From positions 1-56,601 of the forward strand of contig CANQAK010000005.1 of NCBI GenBank assembly GCA_947589495.1: a stretch of 56,601 bases of DNA. The letters are read 5' to 3'. A program made the translations under genes and the position numbers. The stretch's first letter is position 1. Each line of letters begins with the position of its first letter. This stretch comes from an uncultured Bacilli bacterium. GTDB lineage: Bacteria; Bacillota_I; Bacilli_A; RF39; UBA660. Positions 11,765-24,731 of the stretch are shown one piece after another. The notes under the pieces are model-generated. The model worked only from the letters and a program-made list of their open reading frames with translations, had not been told where the DNA came from and did not search any database.

Positions 11765-12388
11765 CTAATTATTTCTGTTAATAATATTTTTTACTTTATT
11801 TTTTATTCTTTGAATTGTATTATCAATTTGTTTACTATTTTTATTTAATATTTTTGCTATTTCTTGATAATTTAAACCTCTTATTTTTAAAACAAAAACT
11901 TCATATTCATTTTTGGTAAGTCTACTTTTTATTAAACTAATTAATTCTTTATAATCTTCTTCTTCTGTAATATTTTTAAGTGGATCATATTCACCTTCAT
12001 CACTTATTATATCCATAAGTCTTGAACCATTTTCAACATAAATAAAATCTAATGAATACATATCTTGAAGATTTCTATATTTATCTCTACTATATTTTCT
12101 TATAATACCAAATATTCTTCTTTCAATACAAACAGTTATAAATGTTGGTAATGATGCATTTCTATCATCTCTATAATTATGTAATGCATCACTAAAACCT
12201 ACACTACATTCACTATAAATTTCTTGATAATCAACATTTAAATTATTTAATTGAGAAGAATGTTTTTTTATTAAAATATTAATTATAAACTTATATTTAG
12301 CATAAAGTAAATTTTTAGCATCTTCATCATTTTCTCTATATAACATTAATAATTCATTATCATTAGTATCAACTGTATAATCTATCAT
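11765..12388 (-). CDS. sigH: RNA polymerase sigma factor, SigH/ComX-like
   Basis: Region 2 (ASLPTFITVCIERRI), region 4 YQEIAKILNKNSKQIDNTIQRIKNKV; follows rlmB as in Bacillota. Confidence 0.8.
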   Translation of the reverse strand: MIDYTVDTNDNELLMLYRENDEDAKNLLYAKYKFIINILIKKHSSQLNNLNVDYQEIYSECSVGFSDALHNYRDDRNASLPTFITVCIERRIFGIIRKYSRDKYRNLQDMYSLDFIYVENGSRLMDIISDEGEYDPLKNITEEEDYKELISLIKSRLTKNEYEVFVLKIRGLNYQEIAKILNKNSKQIDNTIQRIKNKVKNIINRNN

Positions 12389-13047
12389 TTCTTAACCATC
12401 CCATATAAAAGTATACCAGCAGAAGTACTTGCATTTAAGCTATTAATCTTTCCATACATTGGAATACTTATAACAAAATCACTATTATCTAAAACTAATT
12501 TACTTATTCCCTTACCTTCATTACCAATTACTAAAACTTTTTTTGATGCATAATCTATTTGTTGATAATTTTCTCCAATCATATCAGCAGCATATACAAA
12601 ATAACCATCTTTTTTTAATGATTTTAATGCATTAACAATATTATTAACTCTAATTATTTTTACATGTTCAATTGCTCCTGCACTAGTTTTAACAACAGTA
12701 TCTGTAATTCTTACACTTCGATCTTTAGGAATAATAATACTTTTTACTCCTACACATTCACAAGTTCTAATAATTGCTCCAAAATTATGAGGATCTTCTA
12801 AATGATCTAGTACTACTACTAAATTCCCCTCTACATCTTGTAATGAATAATATTCATAATCATCTATATCTATAACAATACCTTGATGATTACCATTAAC
12901 CATTTTTTCTAAAACTTTTTTATCAACAAAATTATATTTTAAATTATTTTTCCCTAAATAATTTATATATTCTTTACTACTAATATAGATTTTTCTAATT
13001 TTATTTTTGTCAATTTCCGTTAAGATGTTTTTTCCATATACTAGCAT
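12385..13047 (-). CDS. rlmB: 23S rRNA Gm2251 2'-O-methyltransferase (SPOUT)
   Basis: NHQG, LDHLEDPHNFGAIIRT, IGNEGKG, IPMYGKINSLNAS; likely start MLVYG at 13047. Confidence 0.92.
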   Translation of the reverse strand: MLVYGKNILTEIDKNKIRKIYISSKEYINYLGKNNLKYNFVDKKVLEKMVNGNHQGIVIDIDDYEYYSLQDVEGNLVVVLDHLEDPHNFGAIIRTCECVGVKSIIIPKDRSVRITDTVVKTSAGAIEHVKIIRVNNIVNALKSLKKDGYFVYAADMIGENYQQIDYASKKVLVIGNEGKGISKLVLDNSDFVISIPMYGKINSLNASTSAGILLYGMVKK

Positions 13048-13141
13048 ATTCTCACCTAGCACTTATTGTATCATATTTTTTCCTACTTGCATAACATTTA
13101 TTTTTTAAGTATATTAATAATAAATTTATCGAGGTGTTTAC

Positions 13142-14062
13142 ATGTTTAAATATAGTTTAGATAATAAAAGATATCACACTCTTAATTATTTTTATAGAAC
13201 AAAATTTAATAGTAAAGTATTTAAAGTACCTATTGATGCCCATTTTAGTTGCCCAAATAAAATAAATAATCATGGTTGTATTTATTGTTATGAAAATAGT
13301 AAAGCTAATATTATTGATAGTAAGGCTTCTATTAAAGAACAATTTTTAAATAATATTAAAGTATTAGAAAAAAAATGGCCAAATAGTTTATATATACCTT
13401 ACTTTCAAGCTGGTACTAATACTTATGCTCCACTTAGTACTTTAAAAAATATTTATGAAGAGTTATTAAATGAACCAAAAGTTGTTGGCCTAGCTATTGC
13501 TACTAGACCTGATACTTTATCTAATGAAATACTTGATTATTTAGAAACATTAAATAAAAAAACATTTTTAACAATTGAGCTAGGCTTACAATCAAGTAAT
13601 AACAATACTTTAAAATTTATTAAAAGAGGACATGATGTTAATACATTTATTAATGCTGTAAAAGAACTTCATAAAAGACATATTTTTGTAGTAGCCCATA
13701 TTATAAATGGGCTACCCTATGAAACAGAAAAAGATATGCTAAATACTATTAAATTATTAAATAATTTAAATATTGATGGTATTAAAATACATATGTTATA
13801 TGTTTCAAAAAATACAGAATTAGCTTCTATATATGAAAAAGAAAAATTTCATATATTAACTAAAGAAGAATATATAGATATTGTTATTAAACAATTAGAA
13901 TTATTAAAACCAGAGGTAGTTATTGAAAGAATTACTGGTGATCCTATCAAAGAAGAATTAATTACTCCAACTTGGTTATTAAAAAAATTTTGTGTATTAA
14001 ATGATATTGATAAAGAAATGGTAAAAAGAAATACCGAACAAGGTATTTCATCTTCCAAATAA
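13142..14062 (+). CDS. Radical SAM protein, YhcC/YtqA (TIGR01212-like) family
   Basis: FSCPN...GCIYC, YFQAGTNTYA, ATRPD, IELGLQS, RGHD, GIKIH, RITGD. Confidence 0.9.
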   Translation: MFKYSLDNKRYHTLNYFYRTKFNSKVFKVPIDAHFSCPNKINNHGCIYCYENSKANIIDSKASIKEQFLNNIKVLEKKWPNSLYIPYFQAGTNTYAPLSTLKNIYEELLNEPKVVGLAIATRPDTLSNEILDYLETLNKKTFLTIELGLQSSNNNTLKFIKRGHDVNTFINAVKELHKRHIFVVAHIINGLPYETEKDMLNTIKLLNNLNIDGIKIHMLYVSKNTELASIYEKEKFHILTKEEYIDIVIKQLELLKPEVVIERITGDPIKEELITPTWLLKKFCVLNDIDKEMVKRNTEQGISSSK

Positions 14063-14093
14063 TTGTTAATAACTTCTTAGTTTTCAACAAAAT

Positions 14094-14156
14094 AAAAGGG
14101 AGGTCGTTACTTCTCCCAGGGTTAAGTTAAGTCTATTTTTACGTCTTCGTTGACGA
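14094..14156. repeat. 63-bp conserved element, copy 1 (3' of cassette-1 surface gene)
   Basis: 61/63 identical to 15799-15861 by manual alignment; contains CGTC-N6-GACG mini-hairpin and GGGAG-N10-CTCCC hairpin followed by U-tract on minus strand. Confidence 0.92.
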
Positions 14157-14168
14157 TTTTTTTATTTG

Positions 14169-15422
14169 TTATGAAACGATGTAAAATGGAGTTCCTATTT
14201 CTCCTGTACCTTCGAGTACCACATCGGACTTCAGATAGAAGACCGGGCGGATAGCATATCCAAGGCTTAAATTGCTGTAGTCAACGGCTCCACTTGGGCC
14301 CACCCACCACGCAGAGAAGGCAGCAGTCCCGGCAGCGTTGTTTCGACCCATACGAGTCATGGTCCATTCGAATCGCTCATCTGTAGATGTTTCTCCTCCA
14401 TTATTACTCATATGTATCCAACTTGTTTTACATTGTGCAGCATCTTGCCTACAACTCGATTCTGATCCTGTTCCACTTAATGCATATGCATAATCATGTA
14501 TATACATTAATCCTATTGGTTTTGATTCTGTCTTTTTTTCCCATTTTTTATCTGTTACTTCTTTTCCAGTTATTGGATCAATATATTTTGTATTTGCTTG
14601 ACCTGTTTCTATTTTATATACTGTCTCTGTTGGTATATTTGAATTTATATAACCATAACTTATATCTCCATATAACCATTGTTGTGGTTCTATTTTATTT
14701 TGTATACTACTATCTAATGTATTATAGTATGTATTATTTAATGTGCTAAATATTGTACTTTCTGGCCACTCTTTGTTTGTTGAATAATTATCCCACCATT
14801 GATGTGTACTTTCATATCTTGTTTGTTTTATTACTTTGATATTTCCTTCTTCTGTTATTCCTATGATTCGATACATGTTTTCATCTGTTCCACTACTAGT
14901 TGCATTACATCCATTTAGTCCCACTTCATTCAAACATATATAATTTTTTACTTTATTTCCTTTTAATTCATCTACACCTTGGTAACGGTACATTCCTCCA
15001 ATTGGTTCATCACTTAAACTTTCATCATTTGTTCTTGAATCTATTAATTCTTGTGGATTCTCTGGTGTTTTTTTATCAAAATATAAATAACAGTATGATG
15101 TTTTATTTGTACTTACTGTTATTTTATCACTTTCATATGTTAAACTATTTTCTATTTTTTCTCCATTATTATCCATACATCCTGACTTTTCTGTATTTAA
15201 CTTATAATCATTTCCTGGAAATATTGATTGTTCTTTATATTCTCCATCTTCCCCTTTTACCATAATAGCAAACATATTATTTTTTTCAACATCTTTTAAG
15301 CTAACTGTATCCAATGTTGCATTTACCGATTTATTCTTGCTTATAAAAACTATACTTGTTGTTAATAATAATATTAGAATTAATAATGTAATAGTTATTT
15401 TCTTATTCATATTTTTATCCAT
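14169..15422 (-). CDS. Membrane-anchored surface protein with one C-terminal CLec-like domain; putative DGR target
   Basis: N-terminal hydrophobic anchor (start may be 15410), 2-Cys adaptor GCMD...SYCYLYFD, domain ending EWTMTR...W.V...AIRPVFYL...GTG...PFYI. Confidence 0.8.
   Translation of the reverse strand: MDKNMNKKITITLLILILLLTTSIVFISKNKSVNATLDTVSLKDVEKNNMFAIMVKGEDGEYKEQSIFPGNDYKLNTEKSGCMDNNGEKIENSLTYESDKITVSTNKTSYCYLYFDKKTPENPQELIDSRTNDESLSDEPIGGMYRYQGVDELKGNKVKNYICLNEVGLNGCNATSSGTDENMYRIIGITEEGNIKVIKQTRYESTHQWWDNYSTNKEWPESTIFSTLNNTYYNTLDSSIQNKIEPQQWLYGDISYGYINSNIPTETVYKIETGQANTKYIDPITGKEVTDKKWEKKTESKPIGLMYIHDYAYALSGTGSESSCRQDAAQCKTSWIHMSNNGGETSTDERFEWTMTRMGRNNAAGTAAFSAWWVGPSGAVDYSNLSLGYAIRPVFYLKSDVVLEGTGEIGTPFYIVS
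14232..14369 (-). other. DGR-type variable region VR-A
   Basis: About 54% GC over 14221-14380 (manual count) in an AT-rich gene; aligns with VR-B1/VR-B2 plus one extra codon. Confidence 0.72.
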
Positions 15423-15433
15423 CCTATATGTCC

Positions 15434-15510
15434 ATAGGTAATATTTACCTATACAACAATTACATTATAGGCAAATTATGCCTAAAAGTCAATAGGTAAA
15501 ATATAACTAT
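15434..15510. promoter_or_regulatory. Three operator palindromes ATAGGYAA-N3-(TTACCTAT-like) in cassette-1 divergent control region
   Basis: 15434-15452 ATAGGTAAtatTTACCTAT (perfect), 15467-15485 ATAGGCAAattATGCCTAA, 15492-15510 ATAGGTAAaatATAACTAT. Confidence 0.8.
15464..15492 (-). promoter_or_regulatory. Sigma-A promoter of cassette-1 surface gene
   Basis: TTGACT (15492-15487), 17 bp, TATAAT (15469-15464). Confidence 0.8.
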
Positions 15511-15534
15511 ATTAAAATGGTGTTGGTGTTATAA

Positions 15535-15762
15535 ATGAATAGATTAAAAGAGATTCGAGAAGACAAAGATTTATTTCAAAAAGATATAGCAGAATATCTA
15601 AATGTTGATCAATCTAATTACAGTAAATATGAATTAGAAAAAATTAACATTCCCATTTCTATACTTATAAAATTAGCAGATTTTTATAATACAAGTGTTG
15701 ATTATTTAGTATATAGAACTGATGATAGAAAACCTTATCCTAAAAGTAAATTATCTAAATGA
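15535..15762 (+). CDS. Small XRE-family HTH regulator (cassette 1)
   Basis: RLKEIRED..QKDIAEYLNVDQSNYSKYE..LADFYNTSVDYL. Confidence 0.93.
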   Translation: MNRLKEIREDKDLFQKDIAEYLNVDQSNYSKYELEKINIPISILIKLADFYNTSVDYLVYRTDDRKPYPKSKLSK

Positions 15763-15766
15763 GATT

Positions 15767-15790
15767 CTACCAAATATGGTAGTTTTTTTT
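15767..15790 (+). terminator. Intrinsic terminator of XRE-1
   Basis: CTACCA-AATA-TGGTAG followed by T8. Confidence 0.8.
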
Positions 15791-15798
15791 ACAAACAA

Positions 15799-15861
15799 AA
15801 AAGGGAGGTCGTTACTTCTCCCAGGGTTAAGTTAAATCTATTTTAACGTCTTCGTTGACGA
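15799..15861. repeat. 63-bp conserved element, copy 2 (3' of cassette-2 surface gene)
   Basis: 61/63 identical to 14094-14156; same position relative to the stop codon. Confidence 0.92.
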
Positions 15862-15880
15862 GTTTTTATTTGTTTTATTA

Positions 15881-18028
15881 TCAATTTGCTATGTAGAATG
15901 GTTCTAACGTTGTTCCTTTTCCTTTTAATTTAATATCATTTGTTAGATAGAAGACGGGACGAACAGCAACCTTACGTTCTAAGGTGCTGGTGTCGACACG
16001 ACCGTCTACATACACAAACCACGCATCGAAGAAATTAAGGGAGTCATTACGCCGACCCACACGCGACATGGTCCATTCATAATCTGATGTATTTCCATTT
16101 TGGTACATATGCATCCAGCCACTATCTCTACATTTATTATATGAATCTGCTCCTTTAGAATTATGGCAACCATCTTGGTTTGCTTGATAATAATAATCAT
16201 GTAAGTACATTAATCCTATATTGGCTTCTTTTGTATTTGTCCATTTCTCTCCTGTTACTTCTTTCTTATCAGATGTTGTTGGTCCATAGTATTTGGTATT
16301 CATGTCTCCACTTTCTACTTGATATATTTGATTTGCTGTTAATGTTCCTACAAAATTATAATGCATATCTCCATAATACCAGTTCCATTTTTGTATTTTT
16401 CCTTGTATTTCACTATCTAGTGTTTTATAAAATGTTTCATTTAAAGTTGTATATACATCACTTCGAGGCCATTCTGGACATCCACTACTTCCACAATAAG
16501 AATCATCATAACGTCCGCTCCATGCATATGTACTTGTTCCGTTGTTCGTAAATTTTGTTTGCTTTATTACTTTGATATTTCCTTCTGGAGTTATTCCTAT
16601 GATTCGGTACATATTGTCATCATAACCATTATTTTTTGCATCACATCCATTTGTTCCTACTTCTTTTAAGCATATATAGTTTTTTACTTTATTTTCTTTT
16701 AATTCATCTGCTCCTTGGTAACGGTACATTCCTCCAACTAAAGTTTTACTTAACGCATCTGTAGTATCTTCTAATCTTAATGTATTTTCTTGATCTGTTG
16801 GTATTACTTCTGTTAATGTATATGGATCTTCTACTGTTCCACTTCCATATAATGTTATATTACTTTTTAAATAGAATACTGGGCGAAGCGCAATAGCACC
16901 TACCAAGGAGCCGTTGGTGATTTCACCGTCCGTATCCACATACCATCTCCAGAAGAGAACAGAGTTATAATTACCCCGACCAACACGCGTCATGGTCTGT
17001 TCTCTTGCCTCATTTCCAGATGTTGTTATTCCATTATTTTTTATGTGCATCCAACCATTATCTTTACATTTTTGATACGAATCTTTTCCTTTTGCATAAT
17101 GACAACCATCTTCGTTTGCTTGATAATAGTAATCATGTAAATATATTAATCCTATATTAGCTTTTTCATTCATTTGAGTCCAGCTTTCATTTGTTACTTC
17201 TGCTGTATTACTTGATTTATGTCCATAGTATTTTGTATTTTTTGCTCCTGTTTCTACTTGGTATATTTCATTTGCACTTAATGTCCCTACAAAATCATAA
17301 TGCATATCTCCATACCACCAGTTTTGTGGTTCTATTTTATTTTTTATTTCTTCATTTAATGAATTGTAAAATGTGGTATTTAATGTTGTATATAATTCAC
17401 TTTCTGGCCATTCTGGACAACCATCTGTTCCACATGTTGAATCGCTATCATTTGAGTTCCATGCATAATTTCCTATACTTGTTTGTTTCATGACTTTTAT
17501 ATTTCCATTCTCTGTGATTCCTATAATCCTATACATTTCATCACTTTGACTTGAACATTTTCCTTCGAAACATAAATAGTTATCTACATCTGGTCCTTGG
17601 TAACGATACATACCTCCTACAGGATTAATACTTAATCCACTGCTCTTTTTTAATTGTTCTATTAATTCTTTTGCATTATTCTTATCAAAATATAAATAAC
17701 AATATGATGTTTTATTTGTAGTAAGAGTTACTTTGTTACTATCTGAATCATATGTTAAGCTGTTTTCTATTTTTTCTCCATTATTATCCATACATCCAGA
17801 TAATTTTTCATTATAGAAATAATCTTCAGGCCATTCATTAGAGTTACTTACTTCATATTCTCCACTATCATTTTGAAGCATTATTGCAAACATATTATTT
17901 TTTTCTACTTCTTTTAAACTAACTGTATCTAATGTTGCATTTACCGATTTATTTTTTCTTATAAAAACTATACTTGTTGTTAATATTAATAATAAAATTA
18001 TTGTTGTAATAAATATTTTCTTTTTCAT
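15881..18028 (-). CDS. Membrane-anchored surface protein with two tandem CLec-like domains; putative DGR target
   Basis: Start MKKKIF at 18028 (the ORF-track start lies inside the promoter); N-terminus nearly identical to the 14169 gene; two GGMYRYQG...RPVFYL domains. Confidence 0.8.
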   Translation of the reverse strand: MKKKIFITTIILLLILTTSIVFIRKNKSVNATLDTVSLKEVEKNNMFAIMLQNDSGEYEVSNSNEWPEDYFYNEKLSGCMDNNGEKIENSLTYDSDSNKVTLTTNKTSYCYLYFDKNNAKELIEQLKKSSGLSINPVGGMYRYQGPDVDNYLCFEGKCSSQSDEMYRIIGITENGNIKVMKQTSIGNYAWNSNDSDSTCGTDGCPEWPESELYTTLNTTFYNSLNEEIKNKIEPQNWWYGDMHYDFVGTLSANEIYQVETGAKNTKYYGHKSSNTAEVTNESWTQMNEKANIGLIYLHDYYYQANEDGCHYAKGKDSYQKCKDNGWMHIKNNGITTSGNEAREQTMTRVGRGNYNSVLFWRWYVDTDGEITNGSLVGAIALRPVFYLKSNITLYGSGTVEDPYTLTEVIPTDQENTLRLEDTTDALSKTLVGGMYRYQGADELKENKVKNYICLKEVGTNGCDAKNNGYDDNMYRIIGITPEGNIKVIKQTKFTNNGTSTYAWSGRYDDSYCGSSGCPEWPRSDVYTTLNETFYKTLDSEIQGKIQKWNWYYGDMHYNFVGTLTANQIYQVESGDMNTKYYGPTTSDKKEVTGEKWTNTKEANIGLMYLHDYYYQANQDGCHNSKGADSYNKCRDSGWMHMYQNGNTSDYEWTMSRVGRRNDSLNFFDAWFVYVDGRVDTSTLERKVAVRPVFYLTNDIKLKGKGTTLEPFYIAN
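15944..16078 (-). other. DGR-type variable region VR-B2 (C-terminal)
   Basis: GC-rich 45-codon block GAA TGG ACC ATG...CGT CCC GTC TTC TAT CTA; NNC/NNT variable codons. Confidence 0.78.
16868..17002 (-). other. DGR-type variable region VR-B1 (internal domain)
   Basis: GC-rich 45-codon block colinear with VR-B2; differences concentrated at codon positions 1-2. Confidence 0.75.
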
Positions 18029-18048
18029 ATTTGACTTTCCAATCTTAT

Positions 18049-18125
18049 ATACAATAGATATTTTGTATCTTAAGTTGATTATACAAAACTTATTTTGTAT
18101 TGTCAATACAAAGCTTTAGTTGTAT
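18049..18125. promoter_or_regulatory. Three operator palindromes ATACAA-N8-TTGTAT in cassette-2 divergent control region
   Basis: 18049-18068, 18081-18100 (ATACAAAActtaTTTTGTAT), 18106-18125; all three have exact ATACAA/TTGTAT arms. Confidence 0.85.
18078..18106 (-). promoter_or_regulatory. Sigma-A promoter of cassette-2 surface gene
   Basis: Perfect TTGACA (18106-18101), 17 bp, TATAAT (18083-18078). Confidence 0.85.
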
Positions 18126-18151
18126 GAGAATTTTTGTTAAAGGTGATATTT

Positions 18152-18385
18152 ATGAATATTAATAGAATAAAAGAAATAAGAGAAGATAGAGATCTATATC
18201 AAAAAGATGTTGCTAATGCTTTAAAAATAAAACAACAACAATACTCAGAGTATGAAATAGGTAAAAGGCTAATTCCAATTAATTATTTAAGTGATTTAGC
18301 TGATTTTTATGATGTATCAATAGATTACTTATTAGGTAAAACTGATGAAAGAAAGCCTTATCCAAAAAGTAAATTAATGAAATAA
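18152..18385 (+). CDS. Small XRE-family HTH regulator (cassette 2), paralog of 15535
   Basis: RBS AAGGTG; RIKEIRED..QKDVANALKIKQQQYSEYE..LADFYDVSIDYL..RKPYPKSKL. Confidence 0.93.
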   Translation: MNINRIKEIREDRDLYQKDVANALKIKQQQYSEYEIGKRLIPINYLSDLADFYDVSIDYLLGKTDERKPYPKSKLMK

Positions 18386-18405
18386 AATGTAAAAGGAAGA
18401 AGTTT

Positions 18406-20211
18406 TTAAGCTTCTTCCATTTTTTCAAATTGACTATTATATAATTCAGCATATTTACCATTAAGTTTTAATAATTCTTCATGAGAACCTTGTTCTACTA
18501 TATTACCTTCTTGCATCATTAATATTAAATCAGCATTTTTAATAGTGGATAATCTATGAGCAATAATAAATGATGTTCTTCCTTCAGTTAATTTATCCAT
18601 CGCTTTTTGAACTAATTCTTCTGTTCTTGTATCAACACTACTAGTGGCTTCATCTAAAATTAAGAAAGGGGCATCTTTAACCATACCACGAGCAATAGTT
18701 AACAATTGTTTTTGTCCTGAAGATAATGTTTCATTATCACTAAGTATTGTATTATAACCTTTAGATAAAGATTTAATATAATGATGTAATCCCACTATCT
18801 TACATACTTTTTCTATTTCTTCATCAGTAATATTACTTTTATTATATTTAATATTTTCTTTTATAGTACCTTCAAAAACCCATGTATCTTGTAATACCAT
18901 AATAAATAAATCATGAATATTTTTTCTAGTTAAATTTTTAGTAGATACACCATCAATTTTAATATCACCATCTACTATATCATAGAATTTCATTAACAAG
19001 TTAACCATTGTTGTTTTACCAGCTCCCGTTGGTCCTACTATGGCTATTTTATCCCCTGGATTAACTTTAACATTAAAATCTTTAATTATTGTTTTATCTT
19101 TATCATAACCAAATTTAACATGTTCAAAAACAATTTCTCCTTTAACATTATTTTTGTTTAGTGACTCTTTGATTCCATCTTCACTACTCATTTCTTCTTC
19201 ATCTAAAAATTCAAATACTCTTTCAGATGCAGCAGCACAAGATTGAAGACTTGATAAAGATTGAGCAATTTGTGATAAAGGTTGAGTAAATAAACGAATA
19301 TATAACATAAATGCTACTATTACACCAAAATCAATAATATTGTTCATAGTTAGTAGAGCTCCTACTACACATACACAAACATAACCAAAGTTACCAATAA
19401 ATCCCATAAATGGATGCATTAACCCTGATAAAAATTGTCCTTTTCTTACATCATCAAATATTTTATCATTAACATTATCAAAAACTTCTTCAGCTTCTGT
19501 AATACCATTATAAACTCTTACTATATTGTGTCCAGAATACATCTCTTCAATATGACCATTAAGTTCACCAATTTCATCTTGTAATCTATCAAAATATTTT
19601 TGACTTTTACTAATAACAAAAATCATAAAAGCAAACCCAATTAAACTAGAAAGTATTGCAGTAAGTGCCATAATACCATTAGTTATAAACATCATAAATA
19701 CTGATCCGATTAAAAGAGTTATGGCACTTACTAACGTACCTAAACTTTGATTTAATGTCATACTTAAAGTATCAACATCATTCGTTACTCTTGATAAAAT
19801 ATCTCCATAACTATTTTTATCAAAATATTTTAAAGGCATATTATTAATTTTTTCACTAATTTCTTTTCTTAATTGTTTAGAAAACTTATTAGTAACTACA
19901 GCCATAATAAATTGTTGTAAATAACCAAAGATAGCACTTACAATATACATTATTAATAATATTAAACTAATTTGTTTAATTTTAGTCATATTTATACCAT
20001 TAAATAATCCTTCAGTAATTAAATTAGTTATTTCTTTTAATTTATCAGGACCTATTATTGATAAAATAGAACTAATCATCGCAAGAATAACCGCTACTAA
20101 AACAGGAATAAAATAAGGTTTACAATAATTTATTAATGTTTTCATAGACTTTTTAAAGTCTTTAGCTTTTTCATTATTTTGTCCTGGCCCTCTTCTTCTA
20201 CCATGGTTCAT
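18406..20211 (-). CDS. Heterodimeric ABC exporter subunit (consensus NBD)
   Basis: TMD plus GPTGAGKT, LSSGQKQ, LILDEATS, IAHRLST. Confidence 0.95.
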   Translation of the reverse strand: MNHGRRRGPGQNNEKAKDFKKSMKTLINYCKPYFIPVLVAVILAMISSILSIIGPDKLKEITNLITEGLFNGINMTKIKQISLILLIMYIVSAIFGYLQQFIMAVVTNKFSKQLRKEISEKINNMPLKYFDKNSYGDILSRVTNDVDTLSMTLNQSLGTLVSAITLLIGSVFMMFITNGIMALTAILSSLIGFAFMIFVISKSQKYFDRLQDEIGELNGHIEEMYSGHNIVRVYNGITEAEEVFDNVNDKIFDDVRKGQFLSGLMHPFMGFIGNFGYVCVCVVGALLTMNNIIDFGVIVAFMLYIRLFTQPLSQIAQSLSSLQSCAAASERVFEFLDEEEMSSEDGIKESLNKNNVKGEIVFEHVKFGYDKDKTIIKDFNVKVNPGDKIAIVGPTGAGKTTMVNLLMKFYDIVDGDIKIDGVSTKNLTRKNIHDLFIMVLQDTWVFEGTIKENIKYNKSNITDEEIEKVCKIVGLHHYIKSLSKGYNTILSDNETLSSGQKQLLTIARGMVKDAPFLILDEATSSVDTRTEELVQKAMDKLTEGRTSFIIAHRLSTIKNADLILMMQEGNIVEQGSHEELLKLNGKYAELYNSQFEKMEEA

Positions 20212-21974
20212 TATTTATCACCTTCTTCTAATTCACTTTGCGATAATTGAGATAAAGCAATTTCTTTATAAACTTTACAATTTTTTAATAATTCTTTATG
20301 TGTACCCATTCCTACTACTTTACCTTCATCAATAACTAAAATTTTATCAGCTTCTTTAATCGTACCTATTCTTTGAGCTACAATTAAATTAGTAGCATCT
20401 TTAGTATATTTTTTTAATTCTTTTCTTAAAGTAAAATCTGTTTTATAATCAAGTGCACTAAAAGAATCATCAAATATATATATTTCTGGCTCACGAGCAA
20501 TCGCTCTTGCAATAGCTACTCTTTGTTTTTGACCACCAGAAATATTAGTACCACCTTGAGAGATGCTTGCATCATATGTTCCTTCCATTTTAGAAATAAA
20601 TTCAGTTCCTTGTGCAACATCTATTGCTTCTTTTATTTTTTTATCATTAGGTTTTTTACCATCATTCATTCCATAAGCAACATTTTCTTTTATAGTACCT
20701 CTAAAAATAACAGCTTTTTGTGATACATATCCTAATATATTATTTAAAGATTCAATTTTATAATCTTTAACATTTACACCATCTACTAATACTTCTCCTT
20801 CAGTTGCATCATAAAATCTTGGTATTAAATTAATTAATGTTGATTTACCTGAACCAGTTGAACCAATAAATGCCACTGTCTCTCCACGATTTGCTTTAAA
20901 TGAAATATCATGTAACATATATTCTTCAGCATCTGGATATTTAAAAGATACATGTTTAAATTCTACTGTTCCAACTTCATTACCTTTTGTAACAGTACCA
21001 TCTTTAATTTTTTCATCTGTTTCTAAAACTTCTAAAATTCTTTTAGCTGATACAGATGCTCTTGGATAAATAATAAATATCATTATTAACATCATAAAAG
21101 ACATAAGTACTTGCATAGCATAAGATGAAAATACAACCATATCACTAAATAAAGATATTTTATCCATCATATTAGCTTTATCTATTAATATTGCTCCAAT
21201 AAAATAAATAGCTAAAGATAAAGTTGTCATTACAAGTGACATTACTGGAGATAATATTCCCATTGTTTTTTGATTAAATAATTGAACATTTTTTAATTCT
21301 TCATTAGCGTGTTCAAATTTCTTTTGTTGATAATTTTCAGCATTAAACGCTCTTATTACACGAATACCAGTTAAATTTTCTCTAGTAATTCTATTTAAAT
21401 TATCAGTTAATTTTTGAACAATTTTAAATTTAGGGAATACTAATAACATTAAAATAACTATTGTAATTAGTAAAACTACTACCCCAATAAGAGTAGCTAA
21501 ACTCCATGTTAAATTTTTACCTGTTATTTTAACAATAGCCCACGTAGCCATAATCGGAGCTTTAATAATTGCTTGTAAACCCATACCAATAAGCATTTGT
21601 ACTTGGGTAACATCATTAGTAGTTCTAGTTATTAAACTACTAGTAGAAAAATTTTTAATTTCTTCTGTACTAAATTTTCCAACTTTAGAAAAAATTTCTC
21701 TACGAATTATTTTACCAAAATATGCTGCTACATATGCTGCAAAATAGCCAACAACAAATGACGCCACTAAACTTCCTAGGGCACAGGCTACCATGTAGCC
21801 ACCTTCTTTTAGAATGCTAGACATAGTACTGCCTTCAGTTTGAACTAAAACAGTAATTTCCGACATATAATCAGGTATTTTTAATTCTAAAAATACATTT
21901 ATAGAAATAAAAATTACACATATAAGTGCATATATTAATTGTTTTTTCCCCATTTTTTTAAATAACTTAAACAT
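20211..21974 (-). CDS. Heterodimeric ABC exporter subunit (degenerate NBD)
   Basis: TMD plus GSTGSGKS, ISGGQKQR, FDDSFSALD, VAQR. Confidence 0.95.
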   Translation of the reverse strand: MFKLFKKMGKKQLIYALICVIFISINVFLELKIPDYMSEITVLVQTEGSTMSSILKEGGYMVACALGSLVASFVVGYFAAYVAAYFGKIIRREIFSKVGKFSTEEIKNFSTSSLITRTTNDVTQVQMLIGMGLQAIIKAPIMATWAIVKITGKNLTWSLATLIGVVVLLITIVILMLLVFPKFKIVQKLTDNLNRITRENLTGIRVIRAFNAENYQQKKFEHANEELKNVQLFNQKTMGILSPVMSLVMTTLSLAIYFIGAILIDKANMMDKISLFSDMVVFSSYAMQVLMSFMMLIMIFIIYPRASVSAKRILEVLETDEKIKDGTVTKGNEVGTVEFKHVSFKYPDAEEYMLHDISFKANRGETVAFIGSTGSGKSTLINLIPRFYDATEGEVLVDGVNVKDYKIESLNNILGYVSQKAVIFRGTIKENVAYGMNDGKKPNDKKIKEAIDVAQGTEFISKMEGTYDASISQGGTNISGGQKQRVAIARAIAREPEIYIFDDSFSALDYKTDFTLRKELKKYTKDATNLIVAQRIGTIKEADKILVIDEGKVVGMGTHKELLKNCKVYKEIALSQLSQSELEEGDK

Positions 21975-22109
21975 TATAACTCCTCTTTCTAGTCATTATA
22001 TGATTTTATCAACATTTAAAATATATTTCAACTAATTTCAAACATTCCTATATTTTATTATCAAAATGTGATAATTTTATGAAATTTGCTATAAAAAAAG
22101 TAGTTAATA

Positions 22110-24731
22110 CTACTTATGTCTTTTAAATTTAAAATATTTGTATATTTCTACTATATATAATATAGAAAAAGCAAGTAAAAATAAAATAATTAAATGAAGA
22201 AAAGGAACACTTCTAATTTGTAATAAATTATTAAATAAAGGTATTTCCATAACCAATATTTGTAGTATTAAAGTTACAAATACTCCATAAAATATTAATT
22301 TATTATTTTTAAAAGGTATTTCTAAAATACTTTTACTTTCACTACGACAATTAAAAACATGAATGTTTTGAATAAAAACCATTAAAGCCATTATATAACT
22401 TCTAGCTACAACTACATCATAATTTAAAACTCTTAATAAATATATCCAAACCATAAAGACTATCACACTAATAGAAAAAGCTGAAAATAATATTTCACTT
22501 ATTAATTCTTTATTAAAAAGTGGTTCTTTAGGACTTCGTGGTTTTTTAGTCATAATATCTTTTTCACTTTTTTCAAACGATAAAGAAAAATCTTGTATTC
22601 CATCAGTAACAACATTAAGCCAAAGTAAATGAATTGCTAAAAGAGGCATAGGTAGATTAAAAAGTAGCGAAAAGGCAAAAAATAAAACTTCTGCAATACC
22701 ACAAGAAATTAAAAAATATACTATTTTTCTTATATTATCATAAGCACATCTACCTTCAATAATACCTGTAACAATTGATTTAAAACGATTATCTAAAATA
22801 ATCATATCAGATGCATCCATAGCAATATCAGTTCCACTACCCATAGCAATACCAATATTTGCAGCTTTTAAAGCTGGGGCATCATTTACTCCATCACCAG
22901 TAACAGCTACAAACTCGCCATTTCTTTTTAAAGATTCTACTATTTGTAATTTTTGTATTGGGCTTACGCGTGAAAAAACTCTTTTATTAGAAATATATTT
23001 ATCAAACTTTTTTTCACCCATTTCATAATACTTTAATAACTCTTCTCCATCTGTAACTAAATTATAATCATTTACTAAATTTAATTCTTTAGCAATAGAA
23101 AATGCTGTTAAAGGATGATCACCAGTAATCATTAAAACTTTAATACCAGATTTTTGACAATTAAGTATTGAAGATATTGTATCTTCTCTAATGGGATCTA
23201 TAAATCCTGTTAATCCCATAAAACATAATTTTTTAATATCTTCTTTAGTATAATTATCTTTTCTTTTAACTTCTCCTTTAGCTAAAGCTATTACTCTATA
23301 ACCATCTTTAGCTAAATATTCATATTGTTTATCTAAATAATCAGTATTTATTTTTTTGGAACACAAATTAATTTTATTACAAAATTTTTTAATAACCTCT
23401 AATGATCCTTTAACGGTACAATATACTTTATTATTTTCTTCATAAAATATAGCAGAATATTTATTATCTGATTCATAAGGTATTGTTGCCAATACCTTTA
23501 TATCATCTTTATTTATTTTTAATTTTTTACCTAATACTAAAAAAGCTAAATCTATAGAATCTCCACCCATTTTATTACCATTAATAAAAGCTTCATTATT
23601 AATAATACCTAATTTAGCAATCTCTTCAGCATAAGATATATTTTCTCCGATAACTTTTCCTTTAGTACTGTAACCAGTACCTGTTACTTGATATTCCATA
23701 TTATTAGGTAAAAGAATTTTTTTCAAAGTTTGTTCATTAACCGTTAAAGTACCTGTTTTATCTGAAGCAATAACTGTACAACTTCCTAAAGCTTCTACTG
23801 CATTTAATTTTCTTACAACAACATTTTTCTTAGACATTTTATTAGATGCTATAGTTAATGCCATAGTTAATGCTAATGAAAGCCCTTCCGGCATAGCAGA
23901 TACTGATAAAGCAATGACTGATAATAATATCTCGTTAGTAGGTACCCCTTTCATTGCAAGTAGAATAATTAAAATAAAAGCAATTAAAACAATTAAAATA
24001 ATTATTTCTTTAGAAAATTTCTCAATTCTAATCGTTAATGGAGATTTTTCTTCTTCTGTATTATTTATTGTATTAGCTATTTTACCTATTTCTGTATCTA
24101 AAGAAATAGCTACTACGATACCTTCTGCTCTTCCACTAAGTATATTAGTACCTGCAAATAACATATTAGTTTGTTCATTTATTAAAGCTTTTTCTTTATC
24201 AATTATTAGATTATTTTTTGGAACACTTGTACTTTCACCCGTTAAAACTGATTCATCAACACATAAATTTTGTGATTCTACAACTCTTATATCAGCACTA
24301 ATTTGATTACCAGATTCCAGTAATACATAATCCCCTACTACTAAATTTGAAGAATCAATTTCTTCTTTTTTACCATTTCTTATTACTTTAGTTTTTATAC
24401 TTACTAAATTTTCTAAAGCTTCCTTAGTTTTATTAGCTTTATTCTCTTCAAATGTTCCCATTAAAACATCCATTAAAATAATAATTAAAATAGCTAAAGC
24501 ATCTACTACTTCACCCACTATAAAACTAATTAAAACAGTAATTAATAATAAAATAACTATAGGACTTTTAAATTCACTAAAAAATATTTTTAAAATACTA
24601 TCTTTTTTCTTTTTAGGAATAATATTTTTTCCATAAATTTTTCTTCTTCTTAAAACTTCTTCATCTTTAAGACCATATTCATTTGTATCTAATTCTTTTT
24701 GAATTTCTTGAATACTTTTATTATAATACAT
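22110..24731 (-). CDS. Cation-transporting P2-type (Ca2+-like) ATPase
   Basis: TGES, PEGL, DKTGTLT, KGS, TGDHP, TGDGVNDAPALK. Confidence 0.93.
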   Translation of the reverse strand: MYYNKSIQEIQKELDTNEYGLKDEEVLRRRKIYGKNIIPKKKKDSILKIFFSEFKSPIVILLLITVLISFIVGEVVDALAILIIILMDVLMGTFEENKANKTKEALENLVSIKTKVIRNGKKEEIDSSNLVVGDYVLLESGNQISADIRVVESQNLCVDESVLTGESTSVPKNNLIIDKEKALINEQTNMLFAGTNILSGRAEGIVVAISLDTEIGKIANTINNTEEEKSPLTIRIEKFSKEIIILIVLIAFILIILLAMKGVPTNEILLSVIALSVSAMPEGLSLALTMALTIASNKMSKKNVVVRKLNAVEALGSCTVIASDKTGTLTVNEQTLKKILLPNNMEYQVTGTGYSTKGKVIGENISYAEEIAKLGIINNEAFINGNKMGGDSIDLAFLVLGKKLKINKDDIKVLATIPYESDNKYSAIFYEENNKVYCTVKGSLEVIKKFCNKINLCSKKINTDYLDKQYEYLAKDGYRVIALAKGEVKRKDNYTKEDIKKLCFMGLTGFIDPIREDTISSILNCQKSGIKVLMITGDHPLTAFSIAKELNLVNDYNLVTDGEELLKYYEMGEKKFDKYISNKRVFSRVSPIQKLQIVESLKRNGEFVAVTGDGVNDAPALKAANIGIAMGSGTDIAMDASDMIILDNRFKSIVTGIIEGRCAYDNIRKIVYFLISCGIAEVLFFAFSLLFNLPMPLLAIHLLWLNVVTDGIQDFSLSFEKSEKDIMTKKPRSPKEPLFNKELISEILFSAFSISVIVFMVWIYLLRVLNYDVVVARSYIMALMVFIQNIHVFNCRSESKSILEIPFKNNKLIFYGVFVTLILQILVMEIPLFNNLLQIRSVPFLHLIILFLLAFSILYIVEIYKYFKFKRHK

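Follow-up and report, generated by a model that had tools for sequence, protein, structure and literature searches.

Putative three-operator repressor cassettes at surface-protein genes of an uncultured Bacilli bacterium: recognition helices that covary with palindromes, and homologs in filamentous phages

Two neighbouring surface-protein genes in the window (the whole stretch of 56,601 nucleotides analysed here) each lie divergent from a small XRE-type regulator gene, and three palindromes stand between the members of each pair. The first-pass annotation likened this arrangement to the OR switches of lambdoid phages and read the two cassettes as co-evolved regulator/operator pairs without cross-talk, which it thought might be bistable. 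The locus raises two questions: whether regulator and palindrome are matched in each cassette, and whether the likeness to phage switches goes beyond analogy.

The positions and steps first given for the three palindromes of each cassette are right at every coordinate (Table 1). On direct reading, O1 of cassette 1 is a perfect 8-3-8 palindrome, ATAGGTAA-TAT-TTACCTAT; O2 (ATAGGCAA-ATT-ATGCCTAA) and O3 (ATAGGTAA-AAT-ATAACTAT) have 2 mismatches each, and the steps are 33 and 25. Cassette 2 holds three perfect ATACAA-N8-TTGTAT sites at steps of 32 and 25. Scored as three-site arrays, cassette 1 reaches 42 and cassette 2 reaches 44; the highest score among 420 shuffles is 38. With up to 3 mismatches allowed, the cassette 1 pattern gives 5 matches against 2.18 expected, a count not significant by itself (11 of 100 shuffles reach 5), and its sole perfect copy in the assembly is the one at 15434. 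The cassette 2 pattern, at up to 1 mismatch, has 4 matches in the window, 3 of which are the cassette 2 operators (shuffle mean 1.32; 2 of 100 reach 4), and the perfect palindrome occurs only 3 times in the 1.11-Mb assembly, each time as a cassette 2 operator.

Table 1. Features of the two cassettes, in window positions.
Feature	Position	Strand	Description
Surface-protein gene 1	14169..15410	-	ORF, 413 aa from ATG 15410; alternative ATG 15422
Cassette 1 O1	15434..15452		ATAGGTAA-N3-TTACCTAT; ~ +5 to +23 of surface-gene promoter
P_surf1	15464..15492	-	-35 TTGACT 15487-15492, 17-nt spacer, -10 TATAAT 15464-15469; 11/12 consensus
Cassette 1 O2	15467..15485		within P_surf1 spacer
Candidate P_xre1	15486..15513	+	-35 AAGTCA 15486-15491, 16 nt, -10 TATATT 15508-15513; weak (8/12), inferred only
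Cassette 1 O3	15492..15510		within spacer of candidate XRE promoter
XRE1	15535..15762	+	75 aa; HTH_3 only; helix 3 VDQSNYSKYE; operator class D
Terminator-like hairpin, then T run, 3' of XRE1	15767..15782	+	
Surface-protein gene 2	15881..18028	-	715 aa from ATG 18028
Cassette 2 O1	18049..18068		ATACAA-N8-TTGTAT; ~ +3 to +22 of P_surf2
P_surf2	18078..18106	-	-35 TTGACA 18101-18106, 17-nt spacer, -10 TATAAT 18078-18083; 12/12 consensus
Cassette 2 O2	18081..18100		within P_surf2 spacer
Candidate P_xre2	18100..18128	+	-35 TTGTCA 18100-18105, 17 nt, -10 TATGAG 18123-18128; 9/12, inferred only
Cassette 2 O3	18106..18125		within spacer of candidate XRE promoter
XRE2	18152..18385	+	77 aa; HTH_3 only; helix 3 IKQQQYSEYE; operator class A
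Bidirectional terminator-like hairpin 3' of XRE2	18395..18418		

P_surf1 and P_surf2 are the two best promoter-like sites in 15350-18450 in a consensus scan, which also bore out the claim that in both cassettes the middle operator fills the spacer of a TTGAC(T/A)-17-TATAAT surface-gene promoter. O1 lies just past the inferred surface-gene start site in each case. For the XRE genes a plain promoter scan called no site with at least 9/12 matches, so their candidate promoters were deduced from the conserved geometry. Each intergenic region has one back-to-back -35 box, which the surface-gene promoter and the candidate XRE promoter share on opposite strands. The inferred starts of the two divergent promoters are ~64 bp apart and the layout is mirror-symmetric, with the centre of O3 ~44.5 bp upstream of the inferred P_surf start and the centre of O2 ~44.5 bp upstream of the inferred P_xre start. 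An alternative XRE -10 box (TAAAAT, 3-8 nt after O3) was rejected because its start site would land on the ribosome-binding site. Cooperativity between O2 and O3 on the same face of the DNA was not adopted either, since their spacing of 25 bp corresponds to ~2.4 helical turns. Each XRE gene is monocistronic and is followed by a terminator-like hairpin.

Both XREs match HTH_3 (PF01381), at 48.6 and 46.9 bits (cut-off 23), and their Pfam matches are of HTH type only, in line with the earlier remark that they have no sensor or peptidase domain. They are identical at 46 of 75 positions overall and at 6 of 15 in residues 26-40; the two were thus correctly described as paralogs alike overall and different at the recognition helix, and the helix strings stand as quoted. 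We modelled XRE2 as a homodimer via residues 40-50 and 56-76, with a score of 0.60 (best control 0.00) that the model may owe to dimers of XRE proteins already solved. Among proteins of known structure, 20 of 30 that pair two copies of one chain attained this mark, as did 1 of 23 that are single chains, and the runs gave at least 98% contact agreement with a partner pLDDT of at least 87. As modelled, the XRE would act as a dimer through its conserved C-terminal tail.

Surface protein 1 has an N-terminal membrane anchor, a β-sandwich domain and one C-type-lectin-like (DUF6273-like) domain. The Pfam match to DUF6273 is weak; the structure model (pLDDT 85.6) has its best PDB match in 9qa6 (E 3e-5), then in the Lcl C-terminal domain, FGE and C-type lectin domains. 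Surface protein 2 shares its N-terminus and has two lectin-like domains, and its gene contains two GC-rich stretches that resemble a DGR template (15947-16067 and 16879-16945). The same surface-protein family has 25 poly-G promoters and a DGR. The proposed repressor switches, slipped-strand promoters and a retroelement all act on this one family, and three systems of variation or control therefore converge on one cell-surface repertoire.

The two cassettes belong to a family found throughout the genus, with relatives in 41 sister genomes, and we compared 84 cassettes; further relatives occur in small filamentous phages. A three-site array above all 420 shuffles is present in 46 of the 84, and in the other 38 no complete array exceeds the null. 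Among the 46 arrays, 45 have an O2-O3 step of 25, and 45 have a surface-gene promoter with a 17-nt spacer; this promoter matches at least 10/12 of the consensus in 37. The candidate XRE promoter averages 7.7/12. The -35 box has been lost in two array-positive cassettes (L054 and L055). One further locus, L118, was rejected as a true array, being a chance AT-rich triple without a promoter; it is kept within the count of 46 and left out of the host/phage XRE tree. With the N-terminal 260 aa of the surface proteins as queries, a divergent member of the surface family was found in 46 of 76 cassettes, and most of the remaining ones carry another anchored protein, with a 'HAYY...GNF' N-terminus. No array accompanies the three XREs whose neighbour is a sigma factor, an ATPase or MutS. 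A literature search outside supplementary files returned nothing on XRE/surface-protein cassettes of this kind.

The helix-versus-palindrome covariation test that the first-pass annotation had proposed could be run on these homologous cassettes, and it supports co-evolved, cassette-specific pairs. The 46 arrays fall into nine real operator classes, each tied one-to-one to a helix-3 variant. Single-linkage clustering of operators (up to 2 differences) merged real classes and was replaced by explicit class definitions. The six half-sites of an intergenic region share one common 8-mer. Within classes, half-site positions 2-7 are conserved at 69-100% and the central bases at 33-89%, and classes of equal spacing differ at no fewer than 3 of 8 half-site positions. 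On the XRE tree, the ten class labels (nine real classes) require 9 changes, the possible minimum. In a hold-out set of 37 cassettes, the palindrome predicted from the helix ranked first by itself in 27, shared the first rank in 6 and was wrong in 4.

Alignment column 29 is the best predictor of class, with 0.95 of the class information and a within-class entropy of 0.11 bits. Gln29 occurs in three host classes and in phage L129, all with C at half-site position 4; the residue 29/base 4 rule is not strict, as Thr29 goes with A in class G and with G in phage L132. In a partial Mantel test that controls for the rest of the protein, operators correlate with four helix residues (r = 0.317; 0 of 2000 permutations attain this value). 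When the helix residues are controlled for instead, the partial correlation of operators with the remainder of the protein is 0.435, so co-inheritance accounts for much of the covariation. Every class forms a single clade, so that about nine events underlie the covariation. Judged from sequence, these comparisons show that repressor and binding site appear to have changed together at least nine times.

The likeness to phage OR switches proved to be more than analogy, since homologous repressors with the same three-operator layout are present in inovirus genomes. The nearest phage relatives of the XREs come from inoviruses of 4-5 kb found in rodent faeces; these repressors are 55-60% identical to XRE2 (tblastn) and 67-74% identical to other host classes, and they nest inside host XRE clades in the tree. 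Phage L128 has an array score of 42 with steps of 30 and 25, and phage L127 has three class C sites scoring 11, 10 and 10 of 12; the same operator layout was read by eye in phages L129, L130, L134 and L136. The neighbours of the cassettes in the window are housekeeping and ABC-transporter genes, with no phage genes nearby.

We propose that the cassettes are exapted repressor/operator switches of the phage-immunity type that silence single members of the surface family and regulate themselves, a reading that we hold to be probable. Each XRE would bind its palindromes, repress, autoregulate and be orthogonal to the others. A dimeric repressor of 75-77 aa, similar to the 434 repressor and ImmR, would recognise only its own palindrome, which helix 3 would read with residue 29 as the main discriminator. 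Occupancy of O2, in the 17-nt spacer, and of O1, past the start site, would shut the near-consensus surface-gene promoter, and occupancy of O3, in the spacer of the repressor's weak promoter, would give negative autoregulation. The module shares ancestry with the repressor switch of small filamentous phages. In this genus it would have been exapted with at least nine specificities that differ from one another, and individual members of the ~45-gene surface-protein family would be kept silent by default.

The kinship with phage repressors could be turned the other way: host XREs may mainly be immunity or decoy repressors against filamentous phages, or phage repressors may hijack host operators, with surface-gene control secondary or part of a phage-host conflict. 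The identity of the inovirus repressors to XRE2 and to other host classes (up to 73-74%), their nesting in host clades and the class C sites of L127 are all consistent with such a role, as is the filamentous-phage repressor Pf4r, which confers immunity and regulates host genes according to PMC8402870. We consider this unlikely, however. In viral contigs scanned for the O2/-35/O3 junction of classes A and D, none of the 42 and 28 pattern hits has flanking operators (0/42 and 0/28 after filtering), and Zot, an inovirus marker, is found in only 1 of 42 genus genomes and had no match in the organism's own genome. In 45 of the 46 arrays, moreover, the position of the host operators coincides exactly with that of the surface-gene promoter.

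A position ~44.5 bp upstream of a start is also a usual one for an activator, and the mirror-symmetric placement of O3 and O2 would suit an XRE that activates the surface gene, or regulates it in both senses, for example from O3 at about -44.5 of P_surf. This seems improbable to us, since P_surf is already at consensus (11-12/12 with a 17-nt spacer) and needs no activator, and since O2 lies inside the P_surf spacer and O1 over +3 to +23. It is more improbable still that the palindromes are bound by another factor, or are chance AT-rich repeats unrelated to the adjoining XRE. A genome of 24.8% G+C would favour such repeats and the raw count for cassette 1 is not above chance, but the array scores exceed all shuffles, operator class and helix class go together in every one of the nine real classes, and the hold-out prediction was right in 27/37.

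Beyond the proposed silencing, each cassette might act as an epigenetic ON/OFF switch whose state is inherited, with one repressor and promoter occlusion as its components; the specificity classes might at the same time define phage immunity groups to which co-resident inoviruses also belong. We offer this tentatively and regard it as doubtful. The occlusion would follow from the single shared -35 box, at which polymerase on one promoter excludes the other. If it is true, surface-protein display and phage immunity would be wired together, beside poly-G phase variation and DGR hypermutation; the specificity shared by host cassettes and inoviruses suggests such a link between immunity and display. 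On the main reading, switch modules of the phage-immunity type would have been recruited to control individual genes of a very large surface-protein family in a 1.1-Mb bacterium of the gut (sample label: rabbit gut). The cassettes also form a natural set of at least nine distinct small-repressor/operator pairs with one scaffold, one promoter geometry and a legible residue-base link, which could serve as a test bed for the HTH recognition code and as a source of orthogonal parts for synthetic circuits.

We compared the cassettes to other known systems. Controller (C) proteins of restriction-modification systems are dimeric XRE proteins of ~80 aa that act on two or three palindromic operators and autoregulate; unlike these, the XREs here have no restriction or methylase genes in 12000-24000, and are monocistronic and divergent from their target. 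Unlike type II toxin-antitoxin modules, they have no small ORF partner, the terminator-like hairpin following directly. With a family profile, the best PDB sequence matches were ImmR (7t8i, E 1.8e-12), DdrO (6rnz, E 1e-7) and CylR2 (E 4.7e-5). ImmR of ICEBs1 and DdrO are inactivated by the partner metalloproteases ImmA and IrrE; a search of the organism's own genome (88% complete) for an ImmA-type protease (Peptidase_M78, PF06114) that might relieve repression in all cassettes found 0 matches. CylR2 of Enterococcus faecalis is similarly small (66 aa, HTH only) and acts as a repressor at an inverted repeat where two divergent promoters overlap. It works with a membrane partner, CylR1, whereas the cassettes contain no CylR1-type gene.

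The lambda OR region shares the three operators, the divergent strong and weak promoters and the third operator over the repressor's own promoter. Unlike lambda CI/Cro, each cassette has one regulator only, without an S24 (LexA-like) self-cleaving domain, and its promoters share a single -35 box. The 434 repressor/Cro OR1-OR3 system is alike in the predicted XRE fold, in three operators between divergent promoters and in the ACAA contained in the class A half-site. The alignment to the 434 repressor (1per_L) is weak (E 0.0078), from sequence only, and in register (residues 4-66 against 4-65), with Q28, Q29, E35, G37, K38 and P42 identical. In 434, Gln28 and Gln29 read ACAA; a literature search gave nothing usable on these contacts. 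The class A operator is ACAA-N8-TTGT in 20 bp, unlike the ACAA-N6-TTGT in 14 bp of 434. Moreover, the cassettes have no Cro-like second regulator, as the divergent gene encodes a surface protein (413 or 715 aa), and the XREs lack a C-terminal oligomerisation or cleavage domain.

The closest known systems are the inovirus repressors (bajarodino viruses 37, 42 and 28, and also CTXphi RstR and Pf4r), which are nearest by sequence. Variants of RstR confer class-specific heteroimmunity. According to PMC8402870, it is as a dimer of dimers that RstR represses rstA, and the region upstream of the Pf4r gene itself holds three copies of the Pf4r motif. The inovirus switch has the same O1-O2-[GTCA]-O3 layout, and there too the repressor gene diverges from a strong promoter. 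Unlike in the phages, the divergent gene in the window is a chromosomal surface-protein paralog in place of a replication/morphogenesis operon, and the host module has been multiplied into many specificities in one genome.

The two tandem cassettes of the window were read directly from the sequence, and every palindrome reported in the first-pass annotation was found at its position and with its steps. Scanning the whole assembly (1.11 Mb, 24.8% G+C, 51 contigs, 88% complete) showed that perfect copies of either palindrome are confined to their own intergenic region. The top two promoter-like sites in 15350-18450 are minus-strand TTGACA-17-TATAAT (12/12) and TTGACT-17-TATAAT (11/12), both with the middle operator in the spacer, as had been described for both cassettes. 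Also as described, the XREs carry no visible sensor domain, since Pfam gives HTH_3-type domains only. The neighboring genes are rlmB-like, sigma-factor, radical-SAM and ABC-transporter genes, and the cassettes are not prophages. At the DNA level the two surface genes are 83-93% identical in their 5' coding parts, versus 47-63% for the operator regions between genes; thus, conserved gene ends flank a diverged switch. Named homologues of the window proteins come from uncultured 'Bacilli bacterium' MAGs, and only four DNA runs (one sample, labelled rabbit gut metagenome) hold the stretch.

We explored the cassette family across the genus, where 41 of 42 genomes have XRE homologues at E ≤ 1e-12. 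The upstream sequence sufficed in 84 cassettes, comprising the 80 top single-domain matches among those listed and four single-XRE cassettes of the window's own genome. A de novo search for three equally spaced sites with one common half-site, using 420 shuffled controls as the null, placed 46 of the 84 above the maximum of the shuffles. The O2-O3 step is 25 in 45/46 arrays and the O1-O2 step is 30-35. The arrays fall into nine real operator classes and one chance array (L118), each class having its own helix-3 variant; cassettes 1 and 2 belong to classes D and A, respectively. Within classes, half-site positions 2-7 are 69-100% conserved and the central bases 33-89%; any two classes that share a spacing have at least 3 of the 8 half-site positions different. 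At four loci of the own genome a fused double-XRE protein (150-164 aa, two HTH domains) replaces the single XRE, and two tandem XRE genes do so in one cassette.

Operator classes and their helix-3 variants
Class	Half-site and spacing	Helix-3 variant
A	ATACAAAA-N4	KQQQ..E
B	ATACAYCT-N4	TQQQ..K
C	ATATAACC-N4	(S/T)QVQ..R
D	ATAGGTAA-N3	DQSN..K
E	ATATACGT-N3	TQPQ..R
F	TTAAAACA-N3	(S/T)QV(A/T)..Y
G	ATAACTTA-N3	SQTG..Q
H	ATACTCAT-N3	SQQQ..R
I	ATAGAAGA-N3	SQRN..Y

The design of the switch was taken from an alignment of many cassettes, with box counts from the 46 arrays. Left of O2 stands ATT, which with the first bases of O2 forms the surface-gene -10 box (plus strand, ATTATA in 25/46 arrays and ATTTTA in 11/46). 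The O2-O3 gap reads (T/A)(T/A)GTCA, and the next base is the opening A of O3; on the minus strand this gives TTGAC(A/T), the -35 box of the surface gene. The plus-strand reading of these bases is a weaker, candidate -35 box for the XRE gene, with a -10-like hexamer 16-17 nt further on, at the right edge of O3, that begins with TA in 43 of the arrays. Thus, O2 fills the spacer of the surface promoter and O3 that of the putative XRE promoter, mirror-symmetric about one shared -35 box. A 17-nt spacer separates the boxes of the surface promoter in 45/46 arrays, and 37/46 have at least 10/12 consensus matches; the candidate XRE promoter averages 7.7/12. We infer the XRE promoter and both start sites from the sequence, which would place O1 at roughly +3 to +23 of the surface transcript.

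Kinship accounts for much of the covariation between operator and XRE. On the tree of 46 XREs the ten labels take 9 changes, the minimum, so that about nine events underlie the covariation; the three N4 classes group in a single clade (support 91), and with the helix residues controlled for, operator shows a partial Mantel correlation of 0.435 with the remainder of the protein. Four lines of evidence extend beyond co-inheritance. Whenever the class changes, the six half-sites of an intergenic region are all altered together, with promoter boxes and spacing unchanged. Operator distance correlates with the four helix residues when the remainder of the protein is controlled for (r = 0.317, matched in 0/2000 permutations). 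Column 29 varies overall (2.23 bits) but hardly at all within a class (0.11 bits), unlike other variable columns (e.g. 23, 47, 48), which vary within classes as well. Finally, among 37 cassettes held out of the class definition, which are orthologues and not independent draws, the palindrome expected from the helix came out alone at the top of the nine in 27 cassettes, shared the top place in 6 and was missed in 4. Co-evolved regulator/operator pairs had been postulated, with helix-palindrome covariation as the check, and the nine classes with nine helix variants and the hold-out predictions argue for them. As a whole, the comparisons support cassette-specific repressor/operator pairs.

A code linking residue 29 to half-site position 4 is tentatively suggested. 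Q29 accompanies C in classes A, B and H and in phage L129, V29 or P29 accompanies T (or A in class F), and S29 or R29 accompanies G. The rule is not strict, since T29 pairs with A in class G, yet phage L132 combines T29 with G. L129 is informative for this code, as its scaffold lies within the class E clade (74% identity) and has Q29 for P29 and ATAC for ATAT.

In a profile search, the nearest solved sequences to the XRE were ImmR of ICEBs1, DdrO and CylR2. All classes share sixteen invariant columns, among them Y59 and Y70 in the conserved C-terminal tail. A homodimer model, with an interface of residues 40-50 and 56-76, scored 0.60 against 0.00 for the best control, a mark reached by 20/30 proteins solved as pairs of one chain and 1/23 solved as single chains; runs agreed in at least 98% of contacts, with partner pLDDT of at least 87. 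Because XRE protein dimers have already been solved, the model is a likeness and not proof. The tail could offer a releasing signal a handle common to all classes or, judging from the model, could simply be the dimer interface.

We propose that an XRE dimer on O1 and O2 would silence an otherwise very strong surface promoter, and that XRE on O3 would limit its own synthesis. Given the common -35 box and putative starts about 64 bp apart, polymerase at one promoter should exclude the other, an argument based on what is generally known of RNA polymerase footprints. Such exclusion could, speculatively, yield two self-sustaining states. A search for a shared de-repressor of the ImmA protease type found none in the own genome (88% complete).

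The regulated surface-protein family has 53 ORF matches, about 45 genes, in the own 1.11-Mb genome, is found in 24/24 sampled genomes of the genus and was absent from the 16 genomes of other genera searched (0/16). Named homologues of the surface gene are all hypothetical proteins. The structural model (pLDDT 85.6) combines a beta-sandwich and a lectin-like domain with a membrane anchor. The top PDB match to it is the IgA peptidase of Thomasclavelia ramosa (9qa6, E 3e-5), followed by the Lcl C-terminal domain, formylglycine-generating enzyme and C-type lectin domains. PMC12402451 gives DUF6273 as the N-terminal domain of this peptidase. A divergent small HTH gene, of several subfamilies, stands at 13 family genes of the own genome, each with its own palindrome over a strong promoter (by eye). 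Genus-wide, N-terminal queries found a divergent family member at 46/76 cassettes, and at most of the remainder the divergent gene encodes a different anchored protein. A TGTTGCA-N3-TACCGAA-like motif is conserved between O1 and the divergent gene start at many loci (e.g. L052, L054, L105, L110, L111, L124); the divergent genes at these loci encode membrane-anchored proteins with a 'HAYY...PIF.GK.GNF' N-terminus.

Small HTH proteins from other subfamilies (70-88 aa) serve five more surface-gene cassettes of the own genome, and each cassette has a palindrome of its own within or next to a TTGACA-17-TATAAT-type promoter. ATTGGYTATATAACCAAT is shared by two genes that have one HTH gene between them, and the TATACACAAATACGATAAAGTGTGATAGAAT-type promoter by four genes with one double-XRE gene. 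That one operator-bearing promoter stands both at genes that adjoin a regulator and at genes that do not suggests control of small regulons in trans.

Near-identical upstream modules with poly-G between TTGACT and TATAAT (G8 in 12, G9 in 13; spacer 15-16 nt) precede 25 surface-family paralogs of the own genome, 0 of them on the window contig; these look like slipped-strand phase-variable promoters. In two sister genomes the module adjoins an XRE gene (L104 in G012; L120 in G024, beside a remnant O3), and recombination thus seems to swap promoter modules among family members. The own genome also holds a diversity-generating retroelement (DGR), whose variable repeat lies at the 3' end of a family paralog; 16/18 mismatches between the repeats fall on template adenines. 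The template has 37 further matching places at paralog 3' ends, with mismatches in excess at template A, so the retroelement may have many targets. Two of these lie in window surface gene 2, the first with 27/42 mismatches at A (39/121 template bases).

Coordinates of the features; C-numbers are contigs of the window's own genome (G000), in which the window is contig C5, unless stated
Feature	Location	Details
Two tandem cassettes	window 14169-18385	surface-protein genes minus, XRE genes (75 / 77 aa) plus; 112-123 bp between genes
Cassette 1 ATAGGYAA-N3 palindromes	window, starts 15434, 15467, 15492	steps 33/25; first perfect, other two 2 mismatches each
Cassette 2 ATACAA-N8-TTGTAT palindromes	window, starts 18049, 18081, 18106	steps 32/25; all three perfect
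5' coding parts of surface genes	window 15257-15376, 17880-18000	
DGR-template matches	window 15947-16067, 16879-16945	
Fused double-XRE genes	C12:24640-25110, C7:9846-10340, C2:78693-79145, C38:8144-8605	
Tandem XRE genes	C25:919-1385	
Other-subfamily cassettes	C4:39599-39676, C18:14003-14054, C18:15812-15918, C1:85365-85497, C3:20368-20498	
ATTGGYTATATAACCAAT sites	C3:12263-12400, C3:20368-20498	
TATACACAAATACGATAAAGTGTGATAGAAT-type promoters	upstream of C2:79306, C2:26793, C17:20895, C1:58618	
Poly-G paralogs	C30:72-1364, C35:6077-7309, C4:31277-32545, C1:2700-3998	examples
DGR	C7:10636-14366	
DGR reverse transcriptase	C7:13668-14366	
DGR template repeat	C7:12374-12494	
DGR variable repeat	C7:12051-12171	
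Zot-family match (L135)	G022 (sister genome), C155:1-1951	E 1.1e-8; small contig

In the phage collection, XRE2 is matched best (55-60% identity) by the annotated 'repressor protein' of circular inoviruses of 4.4-5.4 kb from rodent faeces (bajarodino viruses 37, 42 and 28), followed by unannotated 4-9-kb contigs from human faecal samples. The inovirus repressor genes are divergent from the phage operon, with the intergenic layout of the host cassettes. Phage locus L128 has an array score of 42, steps of 30 and 25 and ATGTCA between O2 and O3; the O2-[GTCA]-O3 layout was also seen by eye in L129, L130, L134 and IMG/VR contig L136, and L127 has three class-C sites (scores 11, 10 and 10 of 12). 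On a joint host and phage tree, of 78 columns only and with many unresolved forks, the phage label takes 4 changes: L127 falls within the clade of host class C, at 73% identity to L066, L129 within class E, and L128 close to classes D, G and I. The nesting and the common layout thus indicate a single family that takes in host cassettes and inovirus switches, with repeated exchange in either or both directions. Scans of viral contigs found no viral counterpart of window classes A and D. Zot was not found in the own genome, and the sole Zot-family match among the 42 genomes of the genus, L135, may be a resident filamentous phage.

The match between XRE2 and phage 434 repressor is weak (E 0.0078), with no gaps up to residue 42 and with Gln28 and Gln29 kept. 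In 434 repressor these two residues read ACAA, which is present in the class A half-site, although the class A operator halves are 2 bp further apart than those of the 434 operator. The annotation had likened the switches to lambdoid OR, a comparison that is sharpened by homologous inovirus repressors with the same layout. These comparisons support a view of the window cassettes as exapted inovirus-type immunity switches, beyond lambda OR look-alikes.
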